Part shown: positions 8,889 through 45,408 of the stretch, one piece after another
Position numbering within the stretch: the stretch's first letter is position 1
How the letters are laid out: every line of letters starts with the position of its first letter
Sequence record: OM386653.1
Strand: one strand, 5' to 3'
DNA: 64,000 nt
Origin: Escherichia phage vB_EcoM_ESCO8
Position numbers and translations under genes: made by a program
Notes under the pieces: model-generated
The model's input: only the letters and a program-made list of their open reading frames with translations
What the model was told of the DNA's origin: nothing
Database searches by the model: none

Positions 8889-9545
8889 ATGACTGTTAAG
8901 CATATTTCTTTTGATGTATGGAATACTCTTATTACTGCTAATCCTTTGTATGCAGAAGAACGCAACAAGGTTATTGCCGAGTATGCCTCTTGTTCTGAGG
9001 TAGAAGCAGCTACCGTATATAAAGAGGTAAAAACTCTCCTGGATTTAAAAGCAGAAAAAGGCATTTGTGGAACATCTAGAAATGCTTGGGAAACACTTTC
9101 TGCTCGTTTGAACATTGATCTTGATAAAGTAGATGGGTTAAAAAGAGACTGTTTAGCAATGTTTATAAAACATCCTCCAACATTAAACCCTGAACTTTGC
9201 AAGAAGTTGGAAGAGCTAAGTTCAACCTATTCTTTGAGTATTAAAAGCAATACTAATTTTGTACCTGGTAGTTTTTTAGCTGTATATTCTGGCTTGACAA
9301 AATTACCATTCGACTTTATGCATTTTTCTGACGAGTTTTGCTTGTGTAAACCAGATCCTAGGTTTTTTAAACTCTCTTTTGATGAAATGGTAACGTTTGA
9401 TCTCGCACCAGAGGAGATCTTACACGTTGGAGATAGTTTGATCTATGATGGAAAAGCTGTTGACATAGGGATGAAGTTCTGTCATATTATTAATCCAGAA
9501 GACTTGTTGGCTAAACTTAAAAAAGAGGAACTTATTAATGCGTAA
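8889..9545 (+). CDS. HAD-superfamily hydrolase (phosphatase-like)
   Basis: Motif I ISFDVWNTLI (DxWxTL variant) and motif IV VGDSLIYDGKAVD; start set at ATG 8889 behind GGAGGA. Confidence 0.6.
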   Translation: MTVKHISFDVWNTLITANPLYAEERNKVIAEYASCSEVEAATVYKEVKTLLDLKAEKGICGTSRNAWETLSARLNIDLDKVDGLKRDCLAMFIKHPPTLNPELCKKLEELSSTYSLSIKSNTNFVPGSFLAVYSGLTKLPFDFMHFSDEFCLCKPDPRFFKLSFDEMVTFDLAPEEILHVGDSLIYDGKAVDIGMKFCHIINPEDLLAKLKKEELINA

Positions 9546-10395
9546 TCAAATTCAACATTTTGCTAATACTTTTACTAACCTGAAGGAAGCAAAATTTAAC
9601 ATTGCAGATTATTCCAAGCTAAAGTTTGGTAGTAACCAGGCAGCAAAAAGAATGGGGCGCATTCTGGCTGAAAGTTTCTTTTCCAAGTATGAAGAACGAC
9701 TGGTAAATGAAAGTTTTGTTGTTATTCCATCTCCATATAACTATGTGAAAAATGCAGCTACAGTGTTATCTGAACATTTTGTAGATCACCTCAACTACCT
9801 AATCTCTATCAAAGGAGGTAAAGCAGTGGAGTGGGATATCGTTCATCGTAAAGTGAGCTATATCAATGATTATGGATTTCTTAGCAAAGAAGATCGTAAG
9901 GCTTTGATCGATGGTGACACTTTCTCTATCAATCGTGATTTCTGGGGTAATAAAACTCTGATTTTCATTGATGATGTTAATATTACAGGAACGCACGAAG
10001 AAAAACTTATTGAAATTTTAGACAAAGAAGGTGTTGAAAACGATACGTTTTTCCTGTACTTTGCAAAGTATGAAGGTACAGAAGCCAATACCGAAGCTGC
10101 ACTTAACTTCAACTATATCAATAACCTGGCAGCTTTTATTAAAATGATTAAACAAGAAACTGATGCTAAATGTTTGGTTCGTCCTATTAAGTATCTAATG
10201 AGTCAAAGCGAAGTTGATTTTAAAATTGCACTTTCACAGCTTCCTTTGTATTATGTAGAACAACTGTTCTTTGGTTGCCTTGCAGAAGGCTACAATAACA
10301 TTGAAAAATATAAAGAGAACTTTGATTTCCTACGTCAATTTTTTGAAAGCAACATTATCAACAAATCTAATGTTAAAGGGGATTATTATGTCTAA
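9538..10395 (+). CDS. phosphoribosyltransferase (PRTase)-like protein
   Basis: PRPP-binding-type motif TLIFIDDVNITGTHEE; start overlaps the HAD stop, suggesting translational coupling. Confidence 0.6.
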   Translation: MRNQIQHFANTFTNLKEAKFNIADYSKLKFGSNQAAKRMGRILAESFFSKYEERLVNESFVVIPSPYNYVKNAATVLSEHFVDHLNYLISIKGGKAVEWDIVHRKVSYINDYGFLSKEDRKALIDGDTFSINRDFWGNKTLIFIDDVNITGTHEEKLIEILDKEGVENDTFFLYFAKYEGTEANTEAALNFNYINNLAAFIKMIKQETDAKCLVRPIKYLMSQSEVDFKIALSQLPLYYVEQLFFGCLAEGYNNIEKYKENFDFLRQFFESNIINKSNVKGDYYV

Positions 10396-11104
10396 TAAAG
10401 TAATGACTTTCGGAGATCCTATCACCAATATTACAGAAAAAGATTTTGGGCGTGTAGCAACAGATAAAGATGGTGTCTTAAGAATTCGTGTACAAGGTAT
10501 TACAGCACAGGATGAATATGCTGTGTATGTTTCAGGTCTTAACTATATTGATGATCGCATTACACAAAACTTTGCACTGATCGGTGGTGTAGAGAAAATG
10601 TATTGGGAAGATGAAATTGTAACAAGTTATCCGGCAGGTATCATTGAGGTATACGGTGATCTTTTAGCAGCAGCCGAGAGAGGCGATATAGACGCTATAG
10701 CACACTGCTGTAACTGTTTTTGCACTATGGGTAGTGGTATTGCACCAAAAATTAAAAGCAAGTGGCCTGGTGCGTTTAAAGCAGATTGTGCCACTAAACA
10801 TGGTGATTATAAAAAATTAGGTACGTTTACCAAATATATAGAAAACAATTTGACAATTTATAATTTATATGGACAATATGGTTATAGTCGTCGTGAGGAA
10901 GGTAAGCGTGACCTGAATTATGAAGCTATCTACAATGCGTTAGATAGTATGGGAGACGATGTTGTATCTTCAGGCGGTAAAATTGTAGGTTTACCAATGC
11001 TTGGTTGTGGTTTGGCTGGAGGTTCTTGGAGTATTGTAAAACTTATGATCGAAGAAACTCTAGTAAACAAAGGTTTAAATGTAATTGTTTACAAACTGAA
11101 ATAA
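10388..11104 (+). CDS. macro-domain-like protein (ADP-ribose-derivative binding/processing), tentative
   Basis: DAIAHCCNCFCTMGSGIAPKI resembles the macro-domain block DAIVNAAN...GGGV.GAI; C-terminal GKIVGLPMLGCGLAGGSW resembles the second macro block; start at ATG 10388 behind AAAGGGG. Confidence 0.4.
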   Translation: MSNKVMTFGDPITNITEKDFGRVATDKDGVLRIRVQGITAQDEYAVYVSGLNYIDDRITQNFALIGGVEKMYWEDEIVTSYPAGIIEVYGDLLAAAERGDIDAIAHCCNCFCTMGSGIAPKIKSKWPGAFKADCATKHGDYKKLGTFTKYIENNLTIYNLYGQYGYSRREEGKRDLNYEAIYNALDSMGDDVVSSGGKIVGLPMLGCGLAGGSWSIVKLMIEETLVNKGLNVIVYKLK

Positions 11105-11113
11105 GGAGAAAGT

Positions 11114-11320
11114 ATGGCAGGTGTTTTAGCAGTATTAGGTTGTTTTATTGTTGTGTTTTTGATTGTGTTAATCCCTAGTTGGCTACTGCTTTTAGCATAC
11201 AACTATATGATTGACATTATCGGCTTAGACTGGCATCATGTTCCTGTAACGTTTTGGAGTGTAGTCTGTGTGACGTTCATTCTTGCGGTACTTCGTGGTA
11301 TCTTTCAATCTAACAAATAA
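11114..11320 (+). CDS. small membrane protein (two predicted TM helices)
   Basis: 68 aa, strongly hydrophobic; AAGGAGA RBS. Confidence 0.45.
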   Translation: MAGVLAVLGCFIVVFLIVLIPSWLLLLAYNYMIDIIGLDWHHVPVTFWSVVCVTFILAVLRGIFQSNK

Positions 11321-11334
11321 GAGAGGATTTTTAT

Positions 11335-11583
11335 ATGCGTAAAGTAAATGTTGAAGTGCTTGAAAAATTTAGAAACACTCGTGATTGTACTATCGGCAAG
11401 GTTTACGAGGCTATTCTCCTTGAAGATGGAGATCAAGTTCCTGCCCCGTATCACGCCTTTAATGGTCAAATCAGCAAAGTGGAAGGTGGTCTTGCTATTT
11501 GCTTTATTGATGACGTAGGTGATGCTGTAGCTTTCCCTGTCATTAACAAAGAAGATAAACTTAAAATTACAGAACTGAACTAG
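11335..11583 (+). CDS. hypothetical protein
   Basis: 82-aa ORF behind AGAGAGGA; no motif recognised. Confidence 0.5.
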   Translation: MRKVNVEVLEKFRNTRDCTIGKVYEAILLEDGDQVPAPYHAFNGQISKVEGGLAICFIDDVGDAVAFPVINKEDKLKITELN

Positions 11584-11611
11584 TTGACTTTCTTTAAAAA
11601 CAGTTTATAGT
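11584..11611 (+). promoter_or_regulatory. sigma70-like promoter (TTGACT-16-TATAGT) upstream of the TerC-family gene
   Basis: -35 at 11584-11589, -10 at 11606-11611, read directly from sequence. Confidence 0.45.
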
Positions 11612-11623
11612 ATAAGACATAGA

Positions 11624-11642
11624 GCGGAGGATTGTCCTCCGC
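11624..11642 (+). other. 5'-proximal stem-loop (gcggagga / tcctccgc) in the TerC leader
   Basis: Perfect 8-bp inverted repeat with 3-nt loop just downstream of the predicted start site; no T-tract after it. Confidence 0.4.
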
Positions 11643-11660
11643 ATTAAAGAGGAGAAAAGA

Positions 11661-12638
11661 ATGCAACTGGGTTTCCCAATTATTGATGTGGTTGTTTTAG
11701 TGGGTATTTTAGTCTTGTCGATTTGTATTGACTTCTTTGGACACAGAGAAAACAAAGAAATTTCATTTAAATCTGCAATTGGCTGGTCAATTTTCTGGAT
11801 TGGGGTATCATTAGCCTACTATGGTTTTGTATACTTCCAACACGGTGCTGATTTTGCGAGCTTGTTCTTGAGTGGGTATGTGTTGGAGAAATCTCTTTCT
11901 GTAGATAACTTAGTAGTATTTGTAGCAGTATTCGCAAGTTTTGGTATTAAAAGCACACACTTGCAGCACAAGATTCTACTTTGGGGTATTGCAGGTGCGA
12001 TTGTCTTCCGAGGTGTGTTTGTAGCAGTAGGTACTTACTTGTTGAGTTTGGGCTGGTATGTTAATATCTTCTTCGGTGCTGTCATCCTTTTCTGTGCGGC
12101 TAAAATGGTATTCGCTGGAGATAATGATGCAGAAGTTGATTACTCTAAACACTGGGCTACTCGCATTGTTCGTAAGCTGTTCCCTGTATCTGATCAGATG
12201 GATGGTGAGAAGTTCTTCACAATCAAAAATGGTGTTCGTGTAGCAACTCCGGCTCTGGTTTGTGTGTTTGTAATGGAAATGGTTGACGTAATCTTTGCAG
12301 TAGACTCTGTTCCAGCAGTAATTGCAGTGACACAAGAACCTCTGCTGGTGTTCTCTTCGATGCTCTGTGCAATCTTAGGTTTACGTGCTCTGTTCTTTGT
12401 TCTTAGTGTTGCACTGAAGTATTTGGTTCATCTGGAGAAAGCAGTTATCGTAGTCCTGGTGTTTGTGGGTGTAAAACTGATGTATCACCCGTTTGCAGAA
12501 ACTCTGCACGCAAAAGTGAGTTTCCTGCCAGCACACATTGACCCGACGATCAGTATGTATATTGTGTTAGGTACTCTTGGGCTGGGTGTTCTTGCAAGTT
12601 TAATCTTCCCTGAAAAAGAAGACCAGGCTGTTGCTTAA
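11661..12638 (+). CDS. TerC-family integral membrane protein
   Basis: Polytopic membrane protein, 325 aa, with the TerC-family signature region GYVLEKSLSVDNLVVF; strong RBS AGAGGAGAAAAG. Confidence 0.75.
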   Translation: MQLGFPIIDVVVLVGILVLSICIDFFGHRENKEISFKSAIGWSIFWIGVSLAYYGFVYFQHGADFASLFLSGYVLEKSLSVDNLVVFVAVFASFGIKSTHLQHKILLWGIAGAIVFRGVFVAVGTYLLSLGWYVNIFFGAVILFCAAKMVFAGDNDAEVDYSKHWATRIVRKLFPVSDQMDGEKFFTIKNGVRVATPALVCVFVMEMVDVIFAVDSVPAVIAVTQEPLLVFSSMLCAILGLRALFFVLSVALKYLVHLEKAVIVVLVFVGVKLMYHPFAETLHAKVSFLPAHIDPTISMYIVLGTLGLGVLASLIFPEKEDQAVA

Positions 12639-12645
12639 TTCATTA

Positions 12646-12666
12646 AGCCCCTTCGGGGGCTTTATT
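12646..12666 (+). terminator. intrinsic terminator (agcccc-TTCG-ggggct) plus T-tract
   Basis: GC stem with TTCG loop followed by ttatt, directly after the TerC stop. Confidence 0.65.
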
Positions 12667-12677
12667 GAGGTGATCTG

Positions 12678-12884
12678 ATGGTGGTTTTACGTGTTCTTTG
12701 GATTCTGTTTGAAAATATTTGTTTTGCTCTAGGTTTGTTTTGTTTGATTTTTATCTTGACAACATATATTGATAACCATACAATTACTATCAACAGGAAC
12801 GGAGAACAGATGTATTGTTTCTCTAGGGATTTTAAAAATTGTGTTGAGATTTTAAATGAGAGGGTTACAAATGAAAAACATTAA
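12678..12884 (+). CDS. hypothetical small membrane protein (uncertain)
   Basis: 68-aa hydrophobic ORF behind GAGGTGA; overlaps the lipoprotein start. Confidence 0.25.
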   Translation: MVVLRVLWILFENICFALGLFCLIFILTTYIDNHTITINRNGEQMYCFSRDFKNCVEILNERVTNEKH

Positions 12885-13461
12885 ATCTTTTATTGTTGCA
12901 GTTGTTTTAGGTAGTGCATTGCTGGTAGGTTGTGATGATTCTGAAAATGTACAAAATCAACGTTACCAACAAACACCAAATCAGATGGTAGATGAACAAT
13001 ATGTAAATCAGCCTGCACCTCAAGTTGTTCAAGCAGCACCTGCACAACCTTCAACAGTTGTTGTGCAAGGAGGCGGCAGTGGTTCTTCTGGCGTAGGTGA
13101 GTTTGCTACAGGTATGCTTCTTGGTCATATGTTGAGTGGTAATAGTGGCGGTGGTGGTTATAGAGATGGCGGTAGCAATACAACAATTATCAATAACAAC
13201 GCTGCTCCTACAACTAATAGTAAAGCATATACAACACAAAAGCATAGGTTTTATGATAAACAAGGGAATACATATACAACCACTAAACAAAACACAATTA
13301 AGCAGCAAAGTGTACAAACGTATTCACGCCCATCAACAACAAAAGTGAATAGTGATTACTCTGCTCGTAAGTCTTACTCAAGTCCTATTAGCTCTTATAG
13401 TAAGTCTTCGAAAAGTTATTCTTCGTCGAAACGTAGTTTTAGTAGCTCACGTCGTCGTTAA
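12871..13461 (+). CDS. lipoprotein with glycine-zipper-like segment and Ser-rich C-terminus
   Basis: Signal peptide MKNIKSFIVAVVLGSALLVGC with lipobox LVGC; Gly-rich stretch GGGSGSSGVGEFATGMLLGHMLSGNSGGGG; start at ATG 12871. Confidence 0.6.
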   Translation: MKNIKSFIVAVVLGSALLVGCDDSENVQNQRYQQTPNQMVDEQYVNQPAPQVVQAAPAQPSTVVVQGGGSGSSGVGEFATGMLLGHMLSGNSGGGGYRDGGSNTTIINNNAAPTTNSKAYTTQKHRFYDKQGNTYTTTKQNTIKQQSVQTYSRPSTTKVNSDYSARKSYSSPISSYSKSSKSYSSSKRSFSSSRRR

Positions 13462-13496
13462 TAATTTAATACAGATTAAATAAGAAGGAGAAACAG

Positions 13497-14348
13497 ATGA
13501 AACTAGAAGTTGGTAAAGTGTATCGCCTGGAAGGTTGGATCTTTAATCAAGAAATTCTTGAGAAGAATAAAGATGGTTTTGAGTTTGTTGGTACTACCAA
13601 GGAAAGTATGCACAATGACGAATACTGTAAATTCGTTGGTAAAAATACAGGTCAAGAACAATTTTGCTTTAAGAGCGCAATCGGTGATTATGCTTCTGTA
13701 ATGCCAACACCAGAAAAGACTTCGAAGCAATATACTGTCTTTGGTGTAAAACTTGAAGAACTTGTAGAACACCCACGTTTTGAAGAGTTCAAGGTTGCTG
13801 CAATGCGCAAGCATTCTGAAATTAAAATACATAATTTGTTTGATTTAGAAGATCGGTTTGATATCTTTATGTATGATCGCAGGGAAAAGCATTTTGATGC
13901 AACGACTTCAAAATTTGCTGCAACAGAGGATATTAAAATCCTTGATGTTGATACCTTTCTTGAGAGTGTATCGTTTGTATTCATTCCTAAATACAAAAAA
14001 CGTAGTGATCATAAACGTGTGAAAGGAACTCCTCGTAAAAAACGTACTGTAAACAAAGCAACTTTGCACTTCACTTCTGGTGATAAATATACTCTCAAAG
14101 GGTTTGAAAGTGTTTTGTATGATGCTGGAACGGGTAATATCAAGTTTATCATTAAGGCAACCTACAAAGGTACGGTATTGCACGAAGAGGCTGTTACACT
14201 ACCTGTATTCGATATCTCTCGTGTTGAGGTACGGGGTGTTAAAGAGTCCTTCGATCTGGATTTCTTAACTGCTAATACCACGGGTTATGTTAATCTGGAA
14301 GCAGATGGAGCATTTATTACTACAAATTATTTAGATATGTTTGTTTAA
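13497..14348 (+). CDS. hypothetical protein
   Basis: 283-aa ORF behind AAGAAGGAGA; no motif recognised. Confidence 0.5.
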   Translation: MKLEVGKVYRLEGWIFNQEILEKNKDGFEFVGTTKESMHNDEYCKFVGKNTGQEQFCFKSAIGDYASVMPTPEKTSKQYTVFGVKLEELVEHPRFEEFKVAAMRKHSEIKIHNLFDLEDRFDIFMYDRREKHFDATTSKFAATEDIKILDVDTFLESVSFVFIPKYKKRSDHKRVKGTPRKKRTVNKATLHFTSGDKYTLKGFESVLYDAGTGNIKFIIKATYKGTVLHEEAVTLPVFDISRVEVRGVKESFDLDFLTANTTGYVNLEADGAFITTNYLDMFV

Positions 14349-14365
14349 TACTTAACTTGTGTTAT

Positions 14366-14391
14366 GATGGTGGTATAGAAGTATCACCATC
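14366..14391 (+). other. stem-loop (gatggtg ... caccatc) between ORF 13497-14348 and the TelA-like gene
   Basis: 7-bp inverted repeat with 12-nt loop; no T-tract. Confidence 0.3.
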
Positions 14392-14416
14392 TACTAAAGA
14401 ATATGGAGGAAATTGA

Positions 14417-15520
14417 ATGTCCAGTCCTTTTATCAGTGCCGTAAAAAGCAAACCGTCTGAAATGAGTGTATTCACGGCAACAACAGAAAAAAGTAAGTCT
14501 TTGTTTGCTCCAACTGCTATGGATGCAAGTCCTGTATATGCCCCTGCTGTTGCACGACCTGTACAAATGCTGCCTCCAATGTCTCGTGAAGAGATTGAAC
14601 AGGTTGGTGCTGATGCAGGACTTACTCTTCGTAACCTTAATGCTGAAGTGCTTAAACACCAGCGTTCATCTCAGGGAGATGAAATGAGTGAACGTTTAAC
14701 TGCGCTTATTAAGCAAGCAAAGCAACTTGATCCTAACTCTATTAAACAATCTAAAGGTTTAGGTAAACTAGTTAAGAAAGTTTTAGGTATGAAAGAAGAT
14801 TTGTTTGGAGAATTTGACACCATCAATAACCGTATTGAAGGTTTGGTAAAGACACTCCAAACAGACTTGAAAAAAGAAGAAGATTCTTTACGATATCTGC
14901 AACGTTTAGAAGAGGCTATTGCAAAATATGCCCTTAGTTTAAACAGGGATATAGAGCTTCTAACAGCTACTTATGAAAAAGAAGAAATTCGCCTTAATAC
15001 ACTGCCTGAAAATGAGGTAGAAGAGCGTCAACGTACTCGTGATACTATGGATCTGCTTGAAATTCGTATTGCAGACCTGAAAGCCTTACGCTTACTATGT
15101 GTTCAGATGGGGCCACGTGTACAAAGTATGCAGAAAGTATCTGCAAGTTTGATGCGATCAGCCCGTAATATTGTGAATAATGTTATCCCTGCTTACTCTG
15201 CAAACTTTTCTATGCATATTGAAAGTCTACGCCAGAAGAAAGCAGCCGATACACAGAACAATGTACTAAATGAATTTAATGCTGCTATTGCAATGGGTAG
15301 TGATTTGGCTGCACAAAACCAAATTGAAGCTACACAACTTGCTAATCGTCAAGTATTGGATATTGAAACATTACGTCGTGATCAAGAAAACTTGGTTAAA
15401 ATGTTGGAAGAAACTAACCGAATCAACACTGAAGCCCGTGCTGCTCGTATTGATTACATTCAAGAAGTGCAATCTCTTGAAGATGGTATGATTCAAACTG
15501 TTAAACGTGGTCTACTTTAA
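14417..15520 (+). CDS. TelA-like (toxic anion resistance family) protein, tentative
   Basis: 367 aa, largely alpha-helical/coiled-coil, size and neighbourhood with TerC, TerD and vWA genes fit TelA; no diagnostic motif confirmed by eye. Confidence 0.4.
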   Translation: MSSPFISAVKSKPSEMSVFTATTEKSKSLFAPTAMDASPVYAPAVARPVQMLPPMSREEIEQVGADAGLTLRNLNAEVLKHQRSSQGDEMSERLTALIKQAKQLDPNSIKQSKGLGKLVKKVLGMKEDLFGEFDTINNRIEGLVKTLQTDLKKEEDSLRYLQRLEEAIAKYALSLNRDIELLTATYEKEEIRLNTLPENEVEERQRTRDTMDLLEIRIADLKALRLLCVQMGPRVQSMQKVSASLMRSARNIVNNVIPAYSANFSMHIESLRQKKAADTQNNVLNEFNAAIAMGSDLAAQNQIEATQLANRQVLDIETLRRDQENLVKMLEETNRINTEARAARIDYIQEVQSLEDGMIQTVKRGLL

Positions 15521-15533
15521 GGAGAAATATATT

Positions 15534-15740
15534 ATGAATATTAAAATTTACAAACTGTCTGGTTCTATGATTGCTGTTCAGTATGATAATGAAGATCGTT
15601 ATGTTCTCCTCCAGGATGCTTGGTTAGATGATCCTAATGTATTCACTGTCCTGCGAGAACTACGTTCTGTCTATACCTATTCTTCTAAAGATGGTTTTGA
15701 CAATTCAACGATGGAATTGGTAAAAGAGGAGAATGTGTAA
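15534..15740 (+). CDS. hypothetical small protein
   Basis: ATG 15534 behind AAGGAGA. Confidence 0.4.
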   Translation: MNIKIYKLSGSMIAVQYDNEDRYVLLQDAWLDDPNVFTVLRELRSVYTYSSKDGFDNSTMELVKEENV

Positions 15741-15940
15741 TGAGTAAAGATATTCACTTAACTCGTGAAGAATTGCAAACCATTATGGAAGATGCTTTCA
15801 TTGATGGTTGGAAACAAGGTCAAGAATCAGATTGGTATGATGCCGAAGATTTTTTGTATTATCATATGACTGCACCTGTAGACGAGCAAACACACTCTGA
15901 AACAACTTTGGCTTTAATTGATCTTAAGGCTGGTGTATAA
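15740..15940 (+). CDS. hypothetical small acidic protein
   Basis: 66 aa; carries motif LTREELQTIMEDAFIDGWKQG shared with the next ORF. Confidence 0.4.
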   Translation: MSKDIHLTREELQTIMEDAFIDGWKQGQESDWYDAEDFLYYHMTAPVDEQTHSETTLALIDLKAGV

Positions 15941-16503
15941 TGGGGTGTTTTAGTTTCTTGTGCAAAGAGTCTGGTAATGCTGCTCTTTCTACCTCTTTTG
16001 ATGGCTCTCCTTGCTACCTATTTCTTTTGAAAGGTGGTAAGGTTGTCGAAGAGATGTATGGGAATTATGATAGCTATGGTAGTGTTTTCTCTAACGAAGA
16101 AGATAAACATGGCAATCGTAAAAGATTTAAGTGGTCTATGCCTTGGGAAGAAGTTTGTAATTTGATGTTCTCTTCCGATCTTGGAGATGGGATTGCTCTG
16201 GTATTAGAAGAGCACTTTACAGGTGAGATCCCAACAGAAAGATCTGAAGAAGATCCTAACCAGGGTTGGGGTGATGGAGAAGAAGATCCAGATTGCTTCT
16301 TCAACACTGAAAATAATAAATTTAAACGTGTTGACAATCCTTACCACAAAGTGCATAATACTTGCATTGAGACAGAAGAAGACTCAAAGCTAGAAATTGA
16401 AGATGATTTAGTTGTAACTATCTCTTTAAACGAGTTGCAAAAAATCACTAGAGAGGCTTTCTATTTAGGTTGGAAAGTAGGTAAAGGAGGAGATAGTGCT
16501 TAA
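15940..16503 (+). CDS. hypothetical acidic protein
   Basis: 187 aa; C-terminal LNELQKITREAFYLGWKVG echoes the motif of the upstream ORF. Confidence 0.45.
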   Translation: MGCFSFLCKESGNAALSTSFDGSPCYLFLLKGGKVVEEMYGNYDSYGSVFSNEEDKHGNRKRFKWSMPWEEVCNLMFSSDLGDGIALVLEEHFTGEIPTERSEEDPNQGWGDGEEDPDCFFNTENNKFKRVDNPYHKVHNTCIETEEDSKLEIEDDLVVTISLNELQKITREAFYLGWKVGKGGDSA

Positions 16504-16765
16504 ATTTAATATCAAAGACGACAAATCAGATGAACCTAAATGTTTTGGAGAACTTGACGTAGGTGATACATTTGTATATTATGTTGCCTATCAAGATTCT
16601 GGTTTAGATACGTTCAGAAACTTAGTGTTTATTAAAGTTAATACAAACCAAGCAATGTGTCTGAACGGTTCGCAAAGAGGTCAACTTAGCTGTATTTCGT
16701 ATGATACAGAAATGGTAGAAGTGGATTTAGAAGTTACTAACATTACACTCAGAAAGGAGAAATAA
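16496..16765 (+). CDS. hypothetical protein
   Basis: GTG start behind AAAGGAGGA; 89 aa. Confidence 0.4.
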   Translation: MLKFNIKDDKSDEPKCFGELDVGDTFVYYVAYQDSGLDTFRNLVFIKVNTNQAMCLNGSQRGQLSCISYDTEMVEVDLEVTNITLRKEK

Positions 16766-16766
16766 T

Positions 16767-17561
16767 ATGTCCAATAAAATCAGTCTTAAAAAACGTCAAG
16801 AAACTCTTACCGTATCTCTGCGTAAGAAAAAGATTAACGATGTTGTTCTTCGTGTCGGTAGCGCCTTAGATATTTCGGGTAGTATGTGTGAGCTGTATCG
16901 TGATGGCACTGTTAGTGATTTTGTAGGTAAGCTACTGCCGTTTGGTATGAAGTTTGATGATAATGCACAGATTGACATGTGGGCTTTCAATAGTTCTTCT
17001 TTTGAACTGCCTCCTGCAACGGCTGATGTATATGATGATTATGTCGGCTCTTGTATGTCTAATGTTTGCATCAATGGTGGTACAGCTTATGCTCCAGTAA
17101 TGCAAGAGATCTATGATACATACTTCGGTAGTGTACCTATGAAAAATATTACACGCGAAGTCGTTGAGTATGAAGAAGTTCCGGCTAAGGGTTTCCTTGC
17201 TAAACTAACTGGTAAAAAAGAACGTGTAGAAGTTACACGTACTGTTGTAGAACAGGTTGTAGATACTGATGCACAAGTTGATCGTACTCCTGCAATGATT
17301 TTCTTCCAAACTGACGGGGAGAACATGGATACTTCAGCAGTACGTAGTTTGCTGAACAAACACCGCAACACTCCTGTTTACTGGTTTATGGTTGGTGTAG
17401 GTAATGCAAACTTTAAATTCCTGAAAGACTTGGCAAAAGAATACGATAACGTTGATTTTATCGGTATTGCAGATTTGTCCTTGTCTGACGAAGAACTTTA
17501 CGATAAACTGCTATCCGAAGAGTTTGGCGAGTGGGTTAAAAAATTTGGAGCAAAAGCGTAA
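16767..17561 (+). CDS. von Willebrand factor A (vWA) domain protein, TerY-like
   Basis: MIDAS-type motif ALDISGSM (DxSxS) near the N-terminus; 264 aa. Confidence 0.6.
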   Translation: MSNKISLKKRQETLTVSLRKKKINDVVLRVGSALDISGSMCELYRDGTVSDFVGKLLPFGMKFDDNAQIDMWAFNSSSFELPPATADVYDDYVGSCMSNVCINGGTAYAPVMQEIYDTYFGSVPMKNITREVVEYEEVPAKGFLAKLTGKKERVEVTRTVVEQVVDTDAQVDRTPAMIFFQTDGENMDTSAVRSLLNKHRNTPVYWFMVGVGNANFKFLKDLAKEYDNVDFIGIADLSLSDEELYDKLLSEEFGEWVKKFGAKA

Positions 17562-17568
17562 AAAACGC

Positions 17569-17596
17569 TTGACTTTGTAGAAAAGATTAGTAAAAT
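17569..17596 (+). promoter_or_regulatory. sigma70-like promoter (TTGACT-16-TAAAAT) driving the TerD gene
   Basis: -35 at 17569-17574, -10 at 17591-17596. Confidence 0.5.
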
Positions 17597-17633
17597 AGAC
17601 AACGTAAATTAACAACAAAGGAGATAATAAATT

Positions 17634-18230
17634 ATGACTCAGAAAATTTCCCTGAAAAAAGGTTCTAGCGAAAAAGTTTCTCTGAAAAAGATTGCACCAG
17701 CACTGAAACGCATTCGTCTGGAATTCTCTTGGAAATCTAACGAAAAACTGGATCTGGATGTTAGTGCTCTGATTTGCCGACACAATGCATCTGGTCTGCC
17801 GGAACTGTTGTCTCCTCGCCACCTGGTATGCTACGCACAGAAATTTGATCCTGAACGTTCTACTTTTGCAGGTGAAGATGTTCGTGACGGTGTAGGACAA
17901 ATGGAGCAGATTGATGTTACACTGGATAATATCTCTGCTGAAGCACAGGAAATTGCATTCGTAATCACTATTGATGACGAAACGGGTAAGAAACGCCTTG
18001 GTCACGCTACCGAAGGTTTCCTTAAAATCTTCGATGATGAACGTAACGTTGAACTGCTGGATTTTGACTTCTTGGCTCCAGAACTTGCAGGTAATACCAT
18101 TTGCCACGTTGCCTCCCTGGTGCGGGAAGATAGCGAATGGAAACTGAAAGCATATGGTGTAGGTAAAGCTGGACTTGACATTTATGATGTAGTTAAAGCG
18201 TTTGGCGCTGGCGACGATTGGTTCGAGTAA
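17634..18230 (+). CDS. TerD-domain protein
   Basis: N-terminal ISLKKGSSEKVSLKK, LDLDVSALI, GEDVRDGVG and C-terminal WKLKAYGVGKAGL blocks characteristic of TerD; strong RBS AAGGAGA; codon choice strongly biased to CTG/CGT/GGT/GAA/AAA. Confidence 0.8.
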   Translation: MTQKISLKKGSSEKVSLKKIAPALKRIRLEFSWKSNEKLDLDVSALICRHNASGLPELLSPRHLVCYAQKFDPERSTFAGEDVRDGVGQMEQIDVTLDNISAEAQEIAFVITIDDETGKKRLGHATEGFLKIFDDERNVELLDFDFLAPELAGNTICHVASLVREDSEWKLKAYGVGKAGLDIYDVVKAFGAGDDWFE

Positions 18231-18239
18231 TAAATCATA

Positions 18240-18262
18240 GCGCCCTTCGGGGCGCATATTTT
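18240..18262 (+). terminator. intrinsic terminator (gcgccc-TTCG-gggcgc) plus T-rich tail
   Basis: Perfect 6-bp GC stem with TTCG tetraloop followed by atattttaaat. Confidence 0.7.
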
Positions 18263-18282: not shown

Positions 18283-18885
18283 ATGGGTATTACTTTAGAA
18301 GGTCAAAAACTTATTCGCAGCGGTAATTTTCTTGTGGATATTGACAACAATGAAGATTATGCTTTAGAAGTTAGTGATGTACTGTTTAATGCTTTGCAGT
18401 CTGGTTTCAATTTTGAAGTTTATGAAGTAATCCGTGGAACTAAACTCAGAGAAACCCTTGGATCAACTAGTGATGTTTATTCTGCGATCTGGCAATATTT
18501 CGGGTTAATGGATGGTAAGACATACCTTACTGATAGTTATTCTGAAGATGTTGTTTATCTTGATATGGAAGAGTTTCGTCGTCTGTTCAAAAGTGAAGAA
18601 AATGAAGAAGAGGGTGAACTTTTTGAAGGAATTACTCTCGAAGGTAATGTTGAAATTGTGTATAAAGCAGGAAAAACATTCCACTTGCGTGAAAACGGTA
18701 AAGCAAAAGTTGATTTTGTAAACAAGACAGTAACAACTGAACATAATTATCTTAAAGATGGTCAACCAGCTTTTGAACGTGTAACAATTAAATTTAAAGT
18801 ATTGTCTGCACTAGTTACGGATCAAGAACGTATTGATTTTGTAGAAGATGGTGTAGTAACTCATACAAAGGTTTACAACATCTAA
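18283..18885 (+). CDS. hypothetical protein
   Basis: 200-aa ORF behind GAGGAGAAAA; internal echo GITLEG appears twice. Confidence 0.5.
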   Translation: MGITLEGQKLIRSGNFLVDIDNNEDYALEVSDVLFNALQSGFNFEVYEVIRGTKLRETLGSTSDVYSAIWQYFGLMDGKTYLTDSYSEDVVYLDMEEFRRLFKSEENEEEGELFEGITLEGNVEIVYKAGKTFHLRENGKAKVDFVNKTVTTEHNYLKDGQPAFERVTIKFKVLSALVTDQERIDFVEDGVVTHTKVYNI

Positions 18886-29811: not shown

Positions 29812-30210
29812 ATGACAGATAATCGTTCTAAAATCTTAGTCGAGACGTTCTACAGTAGAGAAACTAACCGTCTTGAGCTAACTAAAAAAGATGTTGAACC
29901 TCAAGATAATACCTTTTTTATTCAAATACTATGTCTCTTTGGTGGATACAACCGTTTAACAGTGCGGGTAGAAAACAAAGAGATATCTGAAACCACTATC
30001 ACAAAACGTGAGCTTATGTTACTACAGGATACAATACGAGATGTTTTGGATAATCCTGGAAAAGCAAAAGTAATTAACCTTGGTGGAGAAAAGATACAAA
30101 TCCTCCATTTCGAAAGTGGTGAAATAGGATTTGGTATTGGTCTTGGTAAATACCTGTTGGAAGAAACTGACGCTACTCTTTTACGAGAGTTTTGTGTTAA
30201 AGTAATGTAA
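29812..30210 (+). CDS. hypothetical protein
   Basis: 132-aa ORF downstream of the promoter. Confidence 0.45.
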   Translation: MTDNRSKILVETFYSRETNRLELTKKDVEPQDNTFFIQILCLFGGYNRLTVRVENKEISETTITKRELMLLQDTIRDVLDNPGKAKVINLGGEKIQILHFESGEIGFGIGLGKYLLEETDATLLREFCVKVM

Positions 30211-30226
30211 TTATAGAGGAGAATTT

Positions 30227-31174
30227 ATGCCAGTAATTAATTCTGAAATCGACCGTCGTACTAAAAAAGAAGCATTCTGGGCTGAAGGTATCGTTGAATA
30301 TGTCAAACTGGATAAGTTTGATGAAATGAAAGTCTCTTATATTAAGGTTGCAGGTCAGCCAGATAAGAAAATTGAATCAACTCACAAAGCATCTCTGCTT
30401 ATTAAAGAGAAAGGTGCTAGTGCTGATGATAAAGGTGTTTGGGTTAGCCTAGGTGAAGTTAAACTGCATCCAGAACATGAAAACCTGCAAGTTAAAGATG
30501 GTGACAAGTGGGTTACTATCGAAAAAGGTGTAGAACTAACTATGGATGTTAAACCTTCTGAATGGAATGGCAAAACATACTACAATTCCTCTAAAGGTAA
30601 AATCACTATTCTTTCAACAGAAGGTGTTCAGCAAGCACAATCTTCTTCAAAAGGTGGAAATAAGCCATCTAATAACGAAGGTAGCAAGCCTAACTACAAA
30701 AAACGTGATACCGTAGGGATTGAAACAGGACACGCTGTAAACGGCGCTCTGGAGCTTCTACGTGCTGGTGTGAAAGGTGATGCTTTCGACTTGGCTGGTG
30801 TGGTACAATCTGCAACTGTTACTCTGAAAGCAGAAATTGCTAAAGATCGTGGCGTTGATGTGACTGACTATGATCTTGGTGCTTCAGTTGGACACGCAAT
30901 TCTTAACGCTTGTCGTGATCATACAGGTAAAACTGTAACGGCAGAAGAGATTATTGAAGCTGCTCGTGAAGTTCTTGCTTTGTCTGATAAAGTAGCTGCT
31001 GCTATCCGTGGAATGTCTACCCCAGTACAAGAAGTTAAGAAAGAAACTAAAAAAGTAGAGAAGAAAGAGCCAGCACCGAAAGAACCAGAACCTGTTGTTC
31101 AAGATTTCGATGATGATATCCCATTTGCTCCTATTGGTTTGCAGTATGGTCGAAACTTCCTGCACTGTTTCTAA
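30227..31174 (+). CDS. SSB-like protein carrying an E. coli SSB C-terminal tip motif (DFDDDIPF) followed by a 15-aa extension
   Basis: Acidic, Pro-rich linker ...KKEPAPKEPEPVVQDFDDDIPF then APIGLQYGRNFLHCF; N-terminal region compatible with an OB fold but not confirmed. Confidence 0.35.
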   Translation: MPVINSEIDRRTKKEAFWAEGIVEYVKLDKFDEMKVSYIKVAGQPDKKIESTHKASLLIKEKGASADDKGVWVSLGEVKLHPEHENLQVKDGDKWVTIEKGVELTMDVKPSEWNGKTYYNSSKGKITILSTEGVQQAQSSSKGGNKPSNNEGSKPNYKKRDTVGIETGHAVNGALELLRAGVKGDAFDLAGVVQSATVTLKAEIAKDRGVDVTDYDLGASVGHAILNACRDHTGKTVTAEEIIEAAREVLALSDKVAAAIRGMSTPVQEVKKETKKVEKKEPAPKEPEPVVQDFDDDIPFAPIGLQYGRNFLHCF

Positions 31175-43006: not shown

Positions 43007-43144
43007 GGTGCGTTCTCATTACTTTTTAAATCACGATATACAGCTAATTCCCCAAGGTCTACAGAACCCGCTGAATGCACAAGTACAGCAGCACTAAGAC
43101 TAAAAGCAGTTCACCTGATTCATTCATAATATTACCGTAATTGT

Positions 43145-43161
43145 GCCCCCAATTCGGGGGC
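43145..43161 (-). terminator. GC-rich hairpin (gccccc / gggggc) downstream of the tailspike gene
   Basis: 6-bp GC stem; the U-rich tail is better on the plus side, so function is uncertain. Confidence 0.3.
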
Positions 43162-43173
43162 TTAGTGCTTATT

Positions 43174-45408
43174 TTAAAATATCATATTTCCTGTAGTTAC
43201 TATTGCGGATGAGTTTGTTGGTTCATTCACTCTTGTAACACCACGTTCCACATTACCTGTATGGTTCAAATAACTACCACCTGACGGAACAGTAGTCTGG
43301 AACTCAATACTACCACCCTGAAAGGTGTTCCCCGTAGAGTGTACACGGAAGACCCCCACTCCATTACTCAAACGATATGCTTTCGTACCGGTGGGGAGAA
43401 AAGCTACGTTGTTTTTATAGCTAAAGGTTATAGGACCAGAACCTTCGTCATCTTTATCAAGGCTAAAGTGACTGTTCAATCCGCTGGCACCAGTACCAAT
43501 CTGGCTCAACCCATGTACTTTAACTACCTGCTCCTTCGTTCCCTGGAATGAGAACCCAGTATTAGCCAAACTACCACCATTAATAGTAAATCTAATAGCT
43601 TGAACTATATTCTCCGGCGATGAACCTGAACCTACCAATTCGCAATCTATGAATGAAACCGCTGAACCACCAATGTAAGCAGAGTTGAAGTTTCTTACGT
43701 AGGTATTATCAAACACTACATGCTGTGTGAGCACATCAGGTAATGCCATCCCGCTCTGAGTGCTCAATATCACATCACCACCAGTGACTTTTGCGCCTCT
43801 ACCATAAACATTGGAACTCTGTGTGAATCTAAGTCCTTTATCGGCATCAGAGCTGTTGGCTCCAACGGTTACGTCGTTCAGAGTGTTTGCATCATTGTTT
43901 ACTCTAGCACCCTTAGTGAATACAGCTTGCTCAATATGCAGATTTGTTACTTTTGCCGTTGCAATTAAGTAATCACCAAAGTGGTTGGCTACGTGTATAG
44001 AGTCGGCTGAACTACCGTAATATTCGCCTGAGTTTGCGAAAGATAATAGTCCGTAGCAATTCTCGTAAGACAAATGATGCTCAAAAATACCATGCGTAGT
44101 GAATGCCCCATTTCTGGTGCCAGTTTCACCACAGTTCCTTACATTACAATAACTAGCCCCACTGAAATCTACGATATGTCGACCAGAGATATTGTATAAA
44201 TTCTCACAACGGCATTGATATGCATTGTTGAATTGGACAACATGGTCGCTACCGGGAACTCTAGGGAAGTTAGTAGTCGTATCGTGGACAAACACTTTTC
44301 GCACATAAGCTGTTACAACCATAGGGTATGGGTGGTCGTAGCCATCGCCAAGTGATACGTCTGCATTGTTAACGTACTCAAGAGAGACTAGTGCGCATGA
44401 TTGAGCACTAGCAAATGCATCACCGGAGCCAGTAGCATCAGTTATATTTTGGTTCCACCTAACGCCTTTCACCTTTATTTTTATATTTTCTAAAGGAGTA
44501 ACCTCTCGATAGCTTAGTGAACGACCGACAGATAAAGGCCACCCGGTCTTATAATCCACCCTTAACTGAGTTACCGCACCCCCGCTCCCTTGCACCTGCG
44601 TCATGACATTAATTTCACGACCAATGGTTCCGCTGCCTACATCAGAACTCATAATGACCCATTGCCGCTGGGTAAAGAGAGTGTTGTTTGTACACCAATA
44701 GGTGGTATCACCCTTGCTTATCTGGTTTGTTAACACAAAAGAGTCTATCAAGTTTCCAACACTTCCCCTGAACGCAATAATACCGGGGAAACGGTAGTTT
44801 GTGGTGTTAGAAGAACCAGTCCTGTCAGGGATATGTCCTTCAGGTGCGTTCCACAAAATAATGGTGTTCGGCAGCCATAGCTCCAAGTCACCACGCGTGA
44901 TTACGATATTATCTGTAAGGATTATCTCAGAGAGGTTGGAACTCAATTTCGTGATGGAACTGTTTACCGCCCGACGGAAAACGTCAGTTGCGTCAACCCC
45001 GGTGCGTGCTCCGAAGTCTTCTAGACTTGCTTCATTGGTATTAACGCAAACCCAAGCATAACCACTAGTTGTGGTAAAGATTGTCCCGCCGTTATCCACA
45101 AGTCCAGGGGTGTTAGAGCTTCGGAATAATCTGTTGCCACCTGATTCTATATCAGAATAGTAACTTTTAAGGCGGATAACTTGCCCCGGAAAATCCGGTT
45201 CAATAGTTCGAAGAGTAGCCACATCTGGACACTCACCTATAAACTTATATCCATCTGTATCTTTCAACTGGGTGGCTAAAACCACCCCAGTGTCAGTAAG
45301 AAAGTTGGAAACTGTGCTTTTAACAGTTTTATCAGATTGATCTAAAACCAGGTAATCTGAACCATTAACTTTTGATGTTTCGGGTAAATTAGTAATTGTA
45401 GTTGACAT
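43174..45408 (-). CDS. tailspike protein, apparently chimeric (phage-like N-terminal anchor plus GC-richer distal domain)
   Basis: 744 aa; N-terminus MSTTITNLPETSKVNGSDYLVLDQSDKTVKSTVSNF typical of fibre/spike anchors; central and C-terminal coding sequence visibly richer in G/C than neighbours. Confidence 0.5.
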   Translation of the reverse strand: MSTTITNLPETSKVNGSDYLVLDQSDKTVKSTVSNFLTDTGVVLATQLKDTDGYKFIGECPDVATLRTIEPDFPGQVIRLKSYYSDIESGGNRLFRSSNTPGLVDNGGTIFTTTSGYAWVCVNTNEASLEDFGARTGVDATDVFRRAVNSSITKLSSNLSEIILTDNIVITRGDLELWLPNTIILWNAPEGHIPDRTGSSNTTNYRFPGIIAFRGSVGNLIDSFVLTNQISKGDTTYWCTNNTLFTQRQWVIMSSDVGSGTIGREINVMTQVQGSGGAVTQLRVDYKTGWPLSVGRSLSYREVTPLENIKIKVKGVRWNQNITDATGSGDAFASAQSCALVSLEYVNNADVSLGDGYDHPYPMVVTAYVRKVFVHDTTTNFPRVPGSDHVVQFNNAYQCRCENLYNISGRHIVDFSGASYCNVRNCGETGTRNGAFTTHGIFEHHLSYENCYGLLSFANSGEYYGSSADSIHVANHFGDYLIATAKVTNLHIEQAVFTKGARVNNDANTLNDVTVGANSSDADKGLRFTQSSNVYGRGAKVTGGDVILSTQSGMALPDVLTQHVVFDNTYVRNFNSAYIGGSAVSFIDCELVGSGSSPENIVQAIRFTINGGSLANTGFSFQGTKEQVVKVHGLSQIGTGASGLNSHFSLDKDDEGSGPITFSYKNNVAFLPTGTKAYRLSNGVGVFRVHSTGNTFQGGSIEFQTTVPSGGSYLNHTGNVERGVTRVNEPTNSSAIVTTGNMIF

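Follow-up and report, generated by a model that had tools for sequence, protein, structure and literature searches.

We conclude that a 64,000 nucleotide (nt) long stretch of DNA from Escherichia phage vB_EcoM_ESCO8 (OM386653.1; the entire stretch is termed the window in the following) carries, at positions 17634–18230 (+), a gene which we assign to TerD of a phage-borne Ter module in a Justusliebigvirus (phi92-like) coliphage. The codon usage of this gene is at the level of capsid genes, and it is the only non-capsid gene of this kind among the 73 tested in the window. TerD of this module is likely to be built for very high output, with selected codons, a promoter of its own, an open ribosome-binding region and a hairpin, and very large amounts of the protein are probably produced. 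The TerD gene and its family have been described before, as have phage Ter modules, and the locus is otherwise ordinary, with standard expression signals. New here is the quantitative expression signature, which suggests a stoichiometric role of TerD.

Between positions 16500 and 19500, the window shares 100.0% identity with Escherichia phage outra (MN850645.1, reverse strand); for phi92 and some 50 further Justusliebigvirus phages (subfamily Stephanstirmvirinae), the identity is 98–99.7%. The TerD open reading frame (ORF; 198 amino acids, aa) equals outra_91 and is the counterpart of phi92 gp172. TerD proteins of outra and other Justusliebigvirus phages are 100% identical to the window protein, and the same is true for phi92 gp172 despite 12 nucleotide differences in the gene. 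The ORF ends with a tandem stop TAA TAA (18228–18233), of which the second, in-frame TAA covers 18231–18233.

Codon adaptation was determined for 75 genes called in the window using the codon adaptation index (CAI) with Sharp-Li weights for E. coli and, as a second set, weights re-derived from 30 MG1655 genes for ribosomal proteins, elongation factors and rpoA. With the Sharp-Li weights, TerD has a CAI of 0.519 compared to a window mean of 0.288 (standard deviation 0.083; z = 2.8) and ranks third of 75; higher values were found only for the major head gene (61949–62950, −; 0.586) and the head-decoration gene (62972–63364, −; 0.578). The MG1655-derived weights gave the same order (r = 0.99), with 0.619 for TerD, a median of 0.681 for the 30 E. 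coli reference genes and 0.35 for ordinary E. coli genes. CTG makes up 71% of the leucine codons in TerD versus 14% pooled over the other window genes, and GAA (88%), AAA (88%), GCT+GCA (88%), GTT+GTA (92%) and TCT (62%) dominate their codon families as well. A reference-free principal component analysis (PCA) of relative synonymous codon usage placed TerD second on a first component which explains 24% of the variance and correlates with CAI at r = 0.91, but with GC content at third codon positions (GC3) only at r = 0.46. Further, a capsid codon model beat the bulk model for TerD alone of the 73 non-capsid genes (+0.136 nats per codon). In the whole 145-kb genome of outra, TerD is third in CAI and the best-adapted non-structural gene. 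The first-pass annotation of this DNA had described the codon choice of TerD as shifted relative to its neighbors and as similar to that of the major capsid gene. Both statements hold: the per-gene CAI values clearly separate TerD from the neighboring genes, PCA and capsid-model fit agree with the CAI rank, and the head and head-decoration genes have the same codon profile. TerD itself sits outside the structural gene block, and gp172 is not mentioned in the 2026 paper on the phi92 virion structure.

The phage has tRNA genes of its own. In outra, 16 of them are found outside the region of the window (MN850645.1, 19618–22535), Leu-TAA, Leu-TAG, Ser-TGA, Thr-TGT, Gly-TCC, Gln-TTG and Pro-TGG among them. 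They match the A-ending codons which are preferred by bulk phage genes and shunned by TerD and the capsid genes. A tRNA-Arg reading AGA is missing from this cluster, even though AGA is the codon that marks bulk genes most strongly. A separate observation concerns the gene at 30227–31174 (+; 315 aa, phrog_4477, no Pfam match), which has the fourth-highest CAI in the window (0.455) and a GGAGCC hairpin at its 3′ side. Only four genes, this one included, have a codon usage nearer to that of highly expressed E. coli genes than to that of ordinary ones; its product may be a further abundant non-structural protein.

The bias was then followed in orthologous loci. The CAI of TerD is 0.535 in phAPEC8, 0.583 in Klebsiella phage KP2025, and 0.586 and 0.581 in two metagenomic relatives. 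A 51%-identical relative has a much weaker value of 0.367, yet this is the top of its own locus. Indeed, TerD is the best-adapted gene of the neighborhood in every locus examined except one (L011), where it is second to the adjacent vWA-TerF-like gene. The latter has a CAI of 0.37–0.62 in the four orthologous loci scored; within the module, it comes second in the window and in three of these four relatives, and first in L011. Taken together, orthologues of 51–84% protein identity keep the codon bias (CAI 0.54–0.59 for those with 72–84%), while the lineages use different codons at 42–49% of the conserved residues. As the bias survives this synonymous turnover, it is therefore under selection.

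A similar picture emerged for a canonical enterobacterial terZABCDEF operon on a plasmid, in which TerD (CAI 0.544) and TerE (0.522) are the highest and the remaining genes range from 0.24 to 0.49. TerD and TerE have been observed as four spots each on 2-D gels when expressed from a low-copy clone (PMC3823874). Thus, a strong demand for a TerD-type protein looks like a general property of Ter systems, which occur widely among bacteria, plasmids and large phages. No other non-structural gene of the phage has a high-expression signature as strong as that of TerD, and plasmid TerD/TerE behave likewise; this argues for a stoichiometric binder, buffer or scaffold rather than for an enzyme or a regulator. 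No report of a codon or expression signature of TerD from a phage Ter module was found in the literature searched.

Several explanations other than a demand for large amounts were considered for the codon bias. The first-pass annotation had proposed a recent acquisition from a host-like background, in which case the codons would be left over from a TerD captured from E. coli or a plasmid. The GC content of TerD (0.441) does exceed that of the window (0.38), and enterobacterial plasmids often carry ter operons (matches in 2246 plasmid records). However, the best plasmid-borne TerD proteins are only about 31% identical and enterobacterial TerX 29%, and in a database of 5.8 billion proteins, identities of 72–99% for phage relatives were followed by a single match at 51% and then by values of ≤33%. 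Throughout the sampled Stephanstirmvirinae lineages, TerD occurs in conserved gene order, with 72–84% protein identity and the heavy synonymous turnover described above, and the phage clade has insertions and deletions of its own as well as a C-terminal extension. In addition, the GC3 of TerD is 0.355 compared to about 0.50–0.51 for E. coli genes, and the optimal codons which are preferred end with A or T. Recent acquisition is therefore refuted and highly improbable, and we attribute the codon bias to long-term translational selection without recent host capture. A constraint by an overlapping gene on the opposite strand is more improbable still. An antisense ORF of 248 aa is indeed longer than TerD itself, but this frame is free of stops because TerD uses no TTA, CTA or TCA codons, and it is interrupted in four of six orthologues checked (KP2025, phiWec181, L011 and L008). 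The proposal of a real antisense gene is thus refuted and practically excluded. A simple gene caller which takes the longest ORF chooses this antisense frame over TerD. Finally, adaptation to host tRNAs could reflect timing instead of amount, that is, translation of TerD right after infection and before the 16 phage tRNAs build up. The host sigma70-type promoter, the position of TerD in the replication (early) arm of the genome and the phage tRNAs, which read exactly the codons avoided by TerD, would fit. On the other hand, promoter-proximal genes of the same arm are not optimized (TerC, CAI 0.35; the gene at 29812–30210, CAI 0.21), the codon profile is shared only by capsid genes, for which late and very abundant expression is expected, and plasmid TerD/TerE show the same bias without phage tRNAs. 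We thus consider timing an improbable cause. The suggestion of the first-pass annotation that TerD is needed in large amounts gained support, purely in silico, from the capsid-level codons, the maintenance of the bias by selection, the similar plasmid TerD/TerE, the open initiation region and the tandem stop.

The expression signals around TerD were inspected as well. The near-consensus sigma70 promoter of the first-pass annotation was found, with a predicted transcription start near 17603, a 5′ untranslated region (UTR) of about 30 nt and an A-rich stretch just upstream. It ends 37 nt before the ATG and lies alone in the 72-nt gap after vWA-TerF. Both hexamers and the 16-nt spacing are kept in three lineages in which spacer and flanks have diverged: TTGACT…TAAAAT in the window and phi92, TTGACT…TAGAAT in L011 and TTGACA…TAGAAT in KP2025. 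We take this promoter to be real, because of its position and conservation and not because of its match score.

The Shine-Dalgarno (SD) sequence was compared with the other genes of the window. Its duplex with the anti-SD has −8.7 kcal/mol compared to a phage mean of −8.4 (rank 38 of 75), and AGGAG or GGAGG motifs precede most genes annotated in the phi92 stretch. The strong ribosome-binding site (RBS) of the first-pass annotation is thus present, but generic in this phage, and the RBS was rejected as a distinguishing feature of TerD. The initiation region is nearly unstructured (minimum free energy −3.0 kcal/mol, rank 9 of 75).

Downstream of TerD, a stable hairpin is found (ΔG −13.6 kcal/mol, z = −2.9 compared to shuffled sequences), which is followed by the tail AUAUUUUAAAU, a weak U-tract with only four consecutive U. 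L011 and KP2025 have hairpins of unrelated sequence at the same position 3′ of TerD, and different hairpins at the same place argue for a function. The next gene (18283–18885) starts 27 nt past the hairpin, which leaves no room for a promoter of its own; consequently, the hairpin must either leak or act as a 3′ stabilizer. We conclude that it probably serves as an intrinsic terminator that leaks or as a 3′ stabilizer. What had been described as a clean GC-stem terminator has the stem, but its U-tract is weak and read-through is needed. A candidate terminator ahead of the TerD promoter, an AAGCGU/ACGCUU stem at the vWA-TerF stop codon (−7.8 kcal/mol, z = −1.6), has no U-tract and was rejected. 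The gene at 18283–18885 (+; 200 aa, phrog_22473) lies between TerD and SleB in Justusliebigvirus. Genes of similar size, matched by position and size, are found at this place in KP2025 and L011 (208 and 214 aa), and none is found there in Phapecoctavirus. No other gene of the neighborhood varies as much between the window and phi92 as this one (95.5% nucleotide identity).

Features of the TerD locus and the Ter module (positions refer to the window)
Feature	Position	Strand	Remarks
HAD hydrolase	8889–9545	+	Pfam
PRTase_3 (ComF-like)	9538–10395	+	Pfam
Macro-domain protein	10388–11104	+	predicted metabolite branch
TerC promoter	11584–11611	+	TTGACT-16-TATAGT; sigma70-type match
TerC 5′ hairpin	11624–11642	+	GCGGAGGAttgTCCTCCGC; stable; expected at the extreme 5′ end of the mRNA
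TerC coding sequence	11661–12638	+	Pfam TerC 1.2e-38; CAI 0.35
TerC terminator hairpin (putative)	in the 39-nt gap 12639–12677	+	GCCCC-UUCG-GGGGC; 3′ of TerC
TelA-family gene	14417–15520	+	Pfam PF05816 5.7e-34; PHROG family ‘tellurite resistance’
vWA-TerF-like gene	16767–17561	+	Pfam PF10138 7.2e-39; CAI 0.406
TerD sigma70-type promoter	17569–17596	+	TTGACT (17569–17574), 16-nt spacer, TAAAAT (17591–17596); 10/12 matches
Shine-Dalgarno sequence	17618–17624	+	AAGGAGA; 10 nt between AGGAG and ATG
TerD coding sequence	17634–18230	+	198 aa; ATG at 17634; Pfam TerD 5.1e-28
GC hairpin	18240–18255 (to 18266 with U-tract)	+	GCGCCC-UUCG-GGGCGC; six GC pairs
Antisense ORF, not a gene	17511–18257	−	248 aa, longer than TerD

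Whether these signals form a unit of their own is a separate question. If there were no dedicated unit, the promoter would be a chance or weak match, the hairpin an element of RNA stability or processing, and the output would come from translation alone. Several results speak for this possibility and weigh against a gene equipped for high output at all levels. Matches of 10/12 to sigma70 are common (47 in the window on both strands), and a local scan yielded a total of 67 versus 52 ± 7 in shuffled sequences, a modest excess. In Phapecoctavirus (phAPEC8, phiWec181, L009/L010), the intergenic TerD promoter is absent, as there is no gap: one or two small ORFs abut TerD, with a stop/start overlap in L009. 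As Phapecoctavirus keep the codon bias, the dedicated promoter is lineage-specific and dispensable for whatever drives the bias. The RBS is average and its spacing rather long (10 nt). The weak U-tract and the read-through needed by the downstream gene mean that the unit is not closed, and GC hairpins are frequent between co-oriented genes of this phage, with genes after them lacking promoters. Beyond the expression signals, the remodeled Ca2+ loop described below implies that a biochemical function cannot simply be transferred from Klebsiella TerD, and no transcript or protein measurement was found in the literature for any phage of this subfamily. Nevertheless, the chance of a sense-strand site with at least 10/12 matches in the 72-nt gap is roughly 1%, as estimated from site density, and −35, −10 and their spacing are invariant in three lineages with diverged spacer and flanks. 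Further, the layout of promoter, gene and hairpin recurs in TerC, the second core Ter gene. We therefore regard the complete lack of a dedicated unit as unlikely. The self-contained unit of the first-pass annotation stands with respect to the promoter and the hairpin, but not with respect to its borders, given the missing convincing terminator upstream, the leaky hairpin and Phapecoctavirus without the promoter. TerD is best described as an expression peak inside a longer operon and not as a closed cassette.

In our preferred reading, that of TerD produced at very high output, the codons of TerD would be held on abundant host tRNAs (CTG, CGT/CGC, GGT, GAA, AAA, TCT, CAG, CAC, TTC), and those bulk-phage codons which are read by phage tRNAs (TTA, ACA, GGA, CAA, TCA) would be avoided. 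The sigma70-type promoter directly upstream would add transcripts to the read-through from vWA-TerF, while the unstructured ribosome-binding region and the tandem stop would favor output. The UUCG hairpin would either lower transcription into the next gene or protect the 3′ end of the mRNA. As a result, a local expression peak on TerD would form within a longer early or middle operon. TerD would then act stoichiometrically, not catalytically, as a soluble partner of TerC, vWA-TerF and TelA. In bacteria, the core of the Ter system consists of TerC and TerD. The Ter module would probably reshape envelope or divalent-cation physiology during infection, perhaps excluding competing phages. A more far-reaching proposal is that no other non-structural protein of phi92-like phages is as abundant as TerD, which would act in bulk, either sequestering a ligand or cation or forming a sub-membrane lattice with vWA-TerF, TelA and TerC; its altered loop would provide a ligand specificity other than that of bacterial TerD, and superinfecting phages or a host response would be blocked. 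This proposal is speculative and, taken as a whole, doubtful. If TerD does act in bulk, codon adaptation could flag phage proteins which are needed stoichiometrically in conflicts with the host or with rivals.

TerD is the last gene of a Ter module of about 9.4 kb, all of which lies within 8889–18230. Modules of this kind resemble tellurite-resistance systems and relate to membrane and metal stress. Based on its gene content, we consider the phage to carry a nearly complete Ter module. The HAD, PRTase_3 and Macro genes at 8889–11104 are predicted to form the nucleoside-like-metabolite branch of Ter systems. The same Ter neighbors surround TerD in relatives. None of the Ter-module proteins matched any of the PADLOC defence models. 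‘Relatively complete’ phage Ter systems have been described by Iyer et al. and were proposed to act in superinfection exclusion (PMC7824862), and a similar Ter cluster is known from Klebsiella phage phiKp34 (PMC8386662). Within the module, TerC repeats the layout of TerD, that is, promoter, gene and hairpin. TerC-TerD has been described as the minimal functional unit, and insertions in terC, terD or terZ abolish phage inhibition (PMC12054061); the layout shared by both genes fits this description. In KP2025, a 5′-UTR hairpin similar to that of the window TerC was found ahead of TerD.

The family assignment was examined at the level of profile and structure. TerD matches Pfam PF02342 with 98.2 bits (cut-off 25.3), residues 5–180 covering profile positions 3–178 of 187. 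An AlphaFold2 model (pLDDT 88.5, pTM 0.88) was searched with Foldseek and matched 9a6r_B (8.1e-16), 3ibz (9.4e-13) and 2kxt (5.6e-12), each with a probability of 1.0. According to this model, the phage protein adopts the TerD beta-sandwich fold as in 2KXT/3IBZ. The top structural match, chain B of PDB 9a6r (‘SCP2’, a TerD protein of the B. subtilis type; TM-score 0.83), belongs to an integrative model of a complex with GlpD. By analogy, this SCP2-GlpD complex gives a hint that proteins of the TerD type may bind to enzymes associated with membranes.

The putative Ca2+ site of the phage TerD was judged at the motif level, from the sequence. We take the site of Klebsiella TerD to be defined by the acidic Ca2+-binding loop GDN(R/L)TGEGDGDDE and the DxD(A)SA motif. 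The phage clade retains the DLDxSA motif as DLDVSA, but the canonical acidic loop GDNRTGEGDGDDE is changed to GEDVR--DGVGQME throughout the clade, with a deletion of two residues and replacement of three Asp. Alignment and model also indicate insertions and deletions specific to the clade, extra loops, conserved Cys residues and a C-terminal helical extension. We classify the phage clade, based on these features, as a divergent TerD subfamily.

Among known systems, the phage gene resembles enterobacterial TerD/TerE (terZABCDEF; Klebsiella TerD, PDB 2KXT), which share the Pfam family, the beta-sandwich fold and the DLDxSA motif, likewise occur together with TerC and a vWA protein of the TerF type, and likewise have the top codon adaptation within their own operon. 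However, the proteins are only about 23–31% identical, and the phage TerD differs from that of Klebsiella by the Ca2+ loop, which is two residues shorter and lacks three Asp, the extra loops, the Cys residues and the C-terminal extension. Moreover, there is a single TerD gene in the phage versus several TerD paralogues in bacterial operons, and it resides in a virulent phage genome. The stress operon yceCDEFGH of Bacillus subtilis shares the triad of TerD, TerC and TelA with the phage module; we presume that YceC (SCP2) and YceD (general stress protein 16U) are its TerD proteins, YceF its TerC and YceH a TelA-like protein. Its TerD is 23% identical to that of the phage, and the operon is a bacterial envelope-stress regulon and not a phage module. 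Other phage-borne Ter modules, i.e., those of Caulobacter jumbo phages, Acinetobacter phage ME3 and phiKp34, have the same set of TerC, TelA, TerF-vWA and TerD (PMC7824862, PMC8386662), to which the module in the window adds PRTase and HAD. The TerD proteins of the Caulobacter jumbo phages are only about 26% identical to that of the window.

Database records name the gene differently. Gp172 of phi92 is annotated as ‘putative stress protein’, and other records use ‘putative TerD family protein’, ‘TerD-like protein’ or ‘general stress protein 16U’. Gp172 was listed as TerD already in a metagenome paper from 2015 (PMC4690881). Three GenBank records (MG065639, MG065689 and MG065650; ‘Campylobacter phage A150/A110a/B15’) contain a TerD which is 100% or 81% identical to the coliphage TerD. 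The sizes of these records match Stephanstirmvirinae, and they are probably mislabeled or contaminating coliphage genomes.

In contrast to the 100% identity around TerD, the distal part of the window is not colinear with outra. At 43174–45408 (−; region 43007–45408), a gene of 744 aa (GC 0.434, GC3 0.38) was found next to a 167-nt non-coding gap, and outra has no annotated gene of that size. It is located among tail-fibre genes and may represent an exchanged cassette for receptor binding or for a depolymerase. In the structural block, 294 nt (56569–56862, −) are without an annotated gene and contain only a weak ORF of 75 aa with a TTG start and no RBS.

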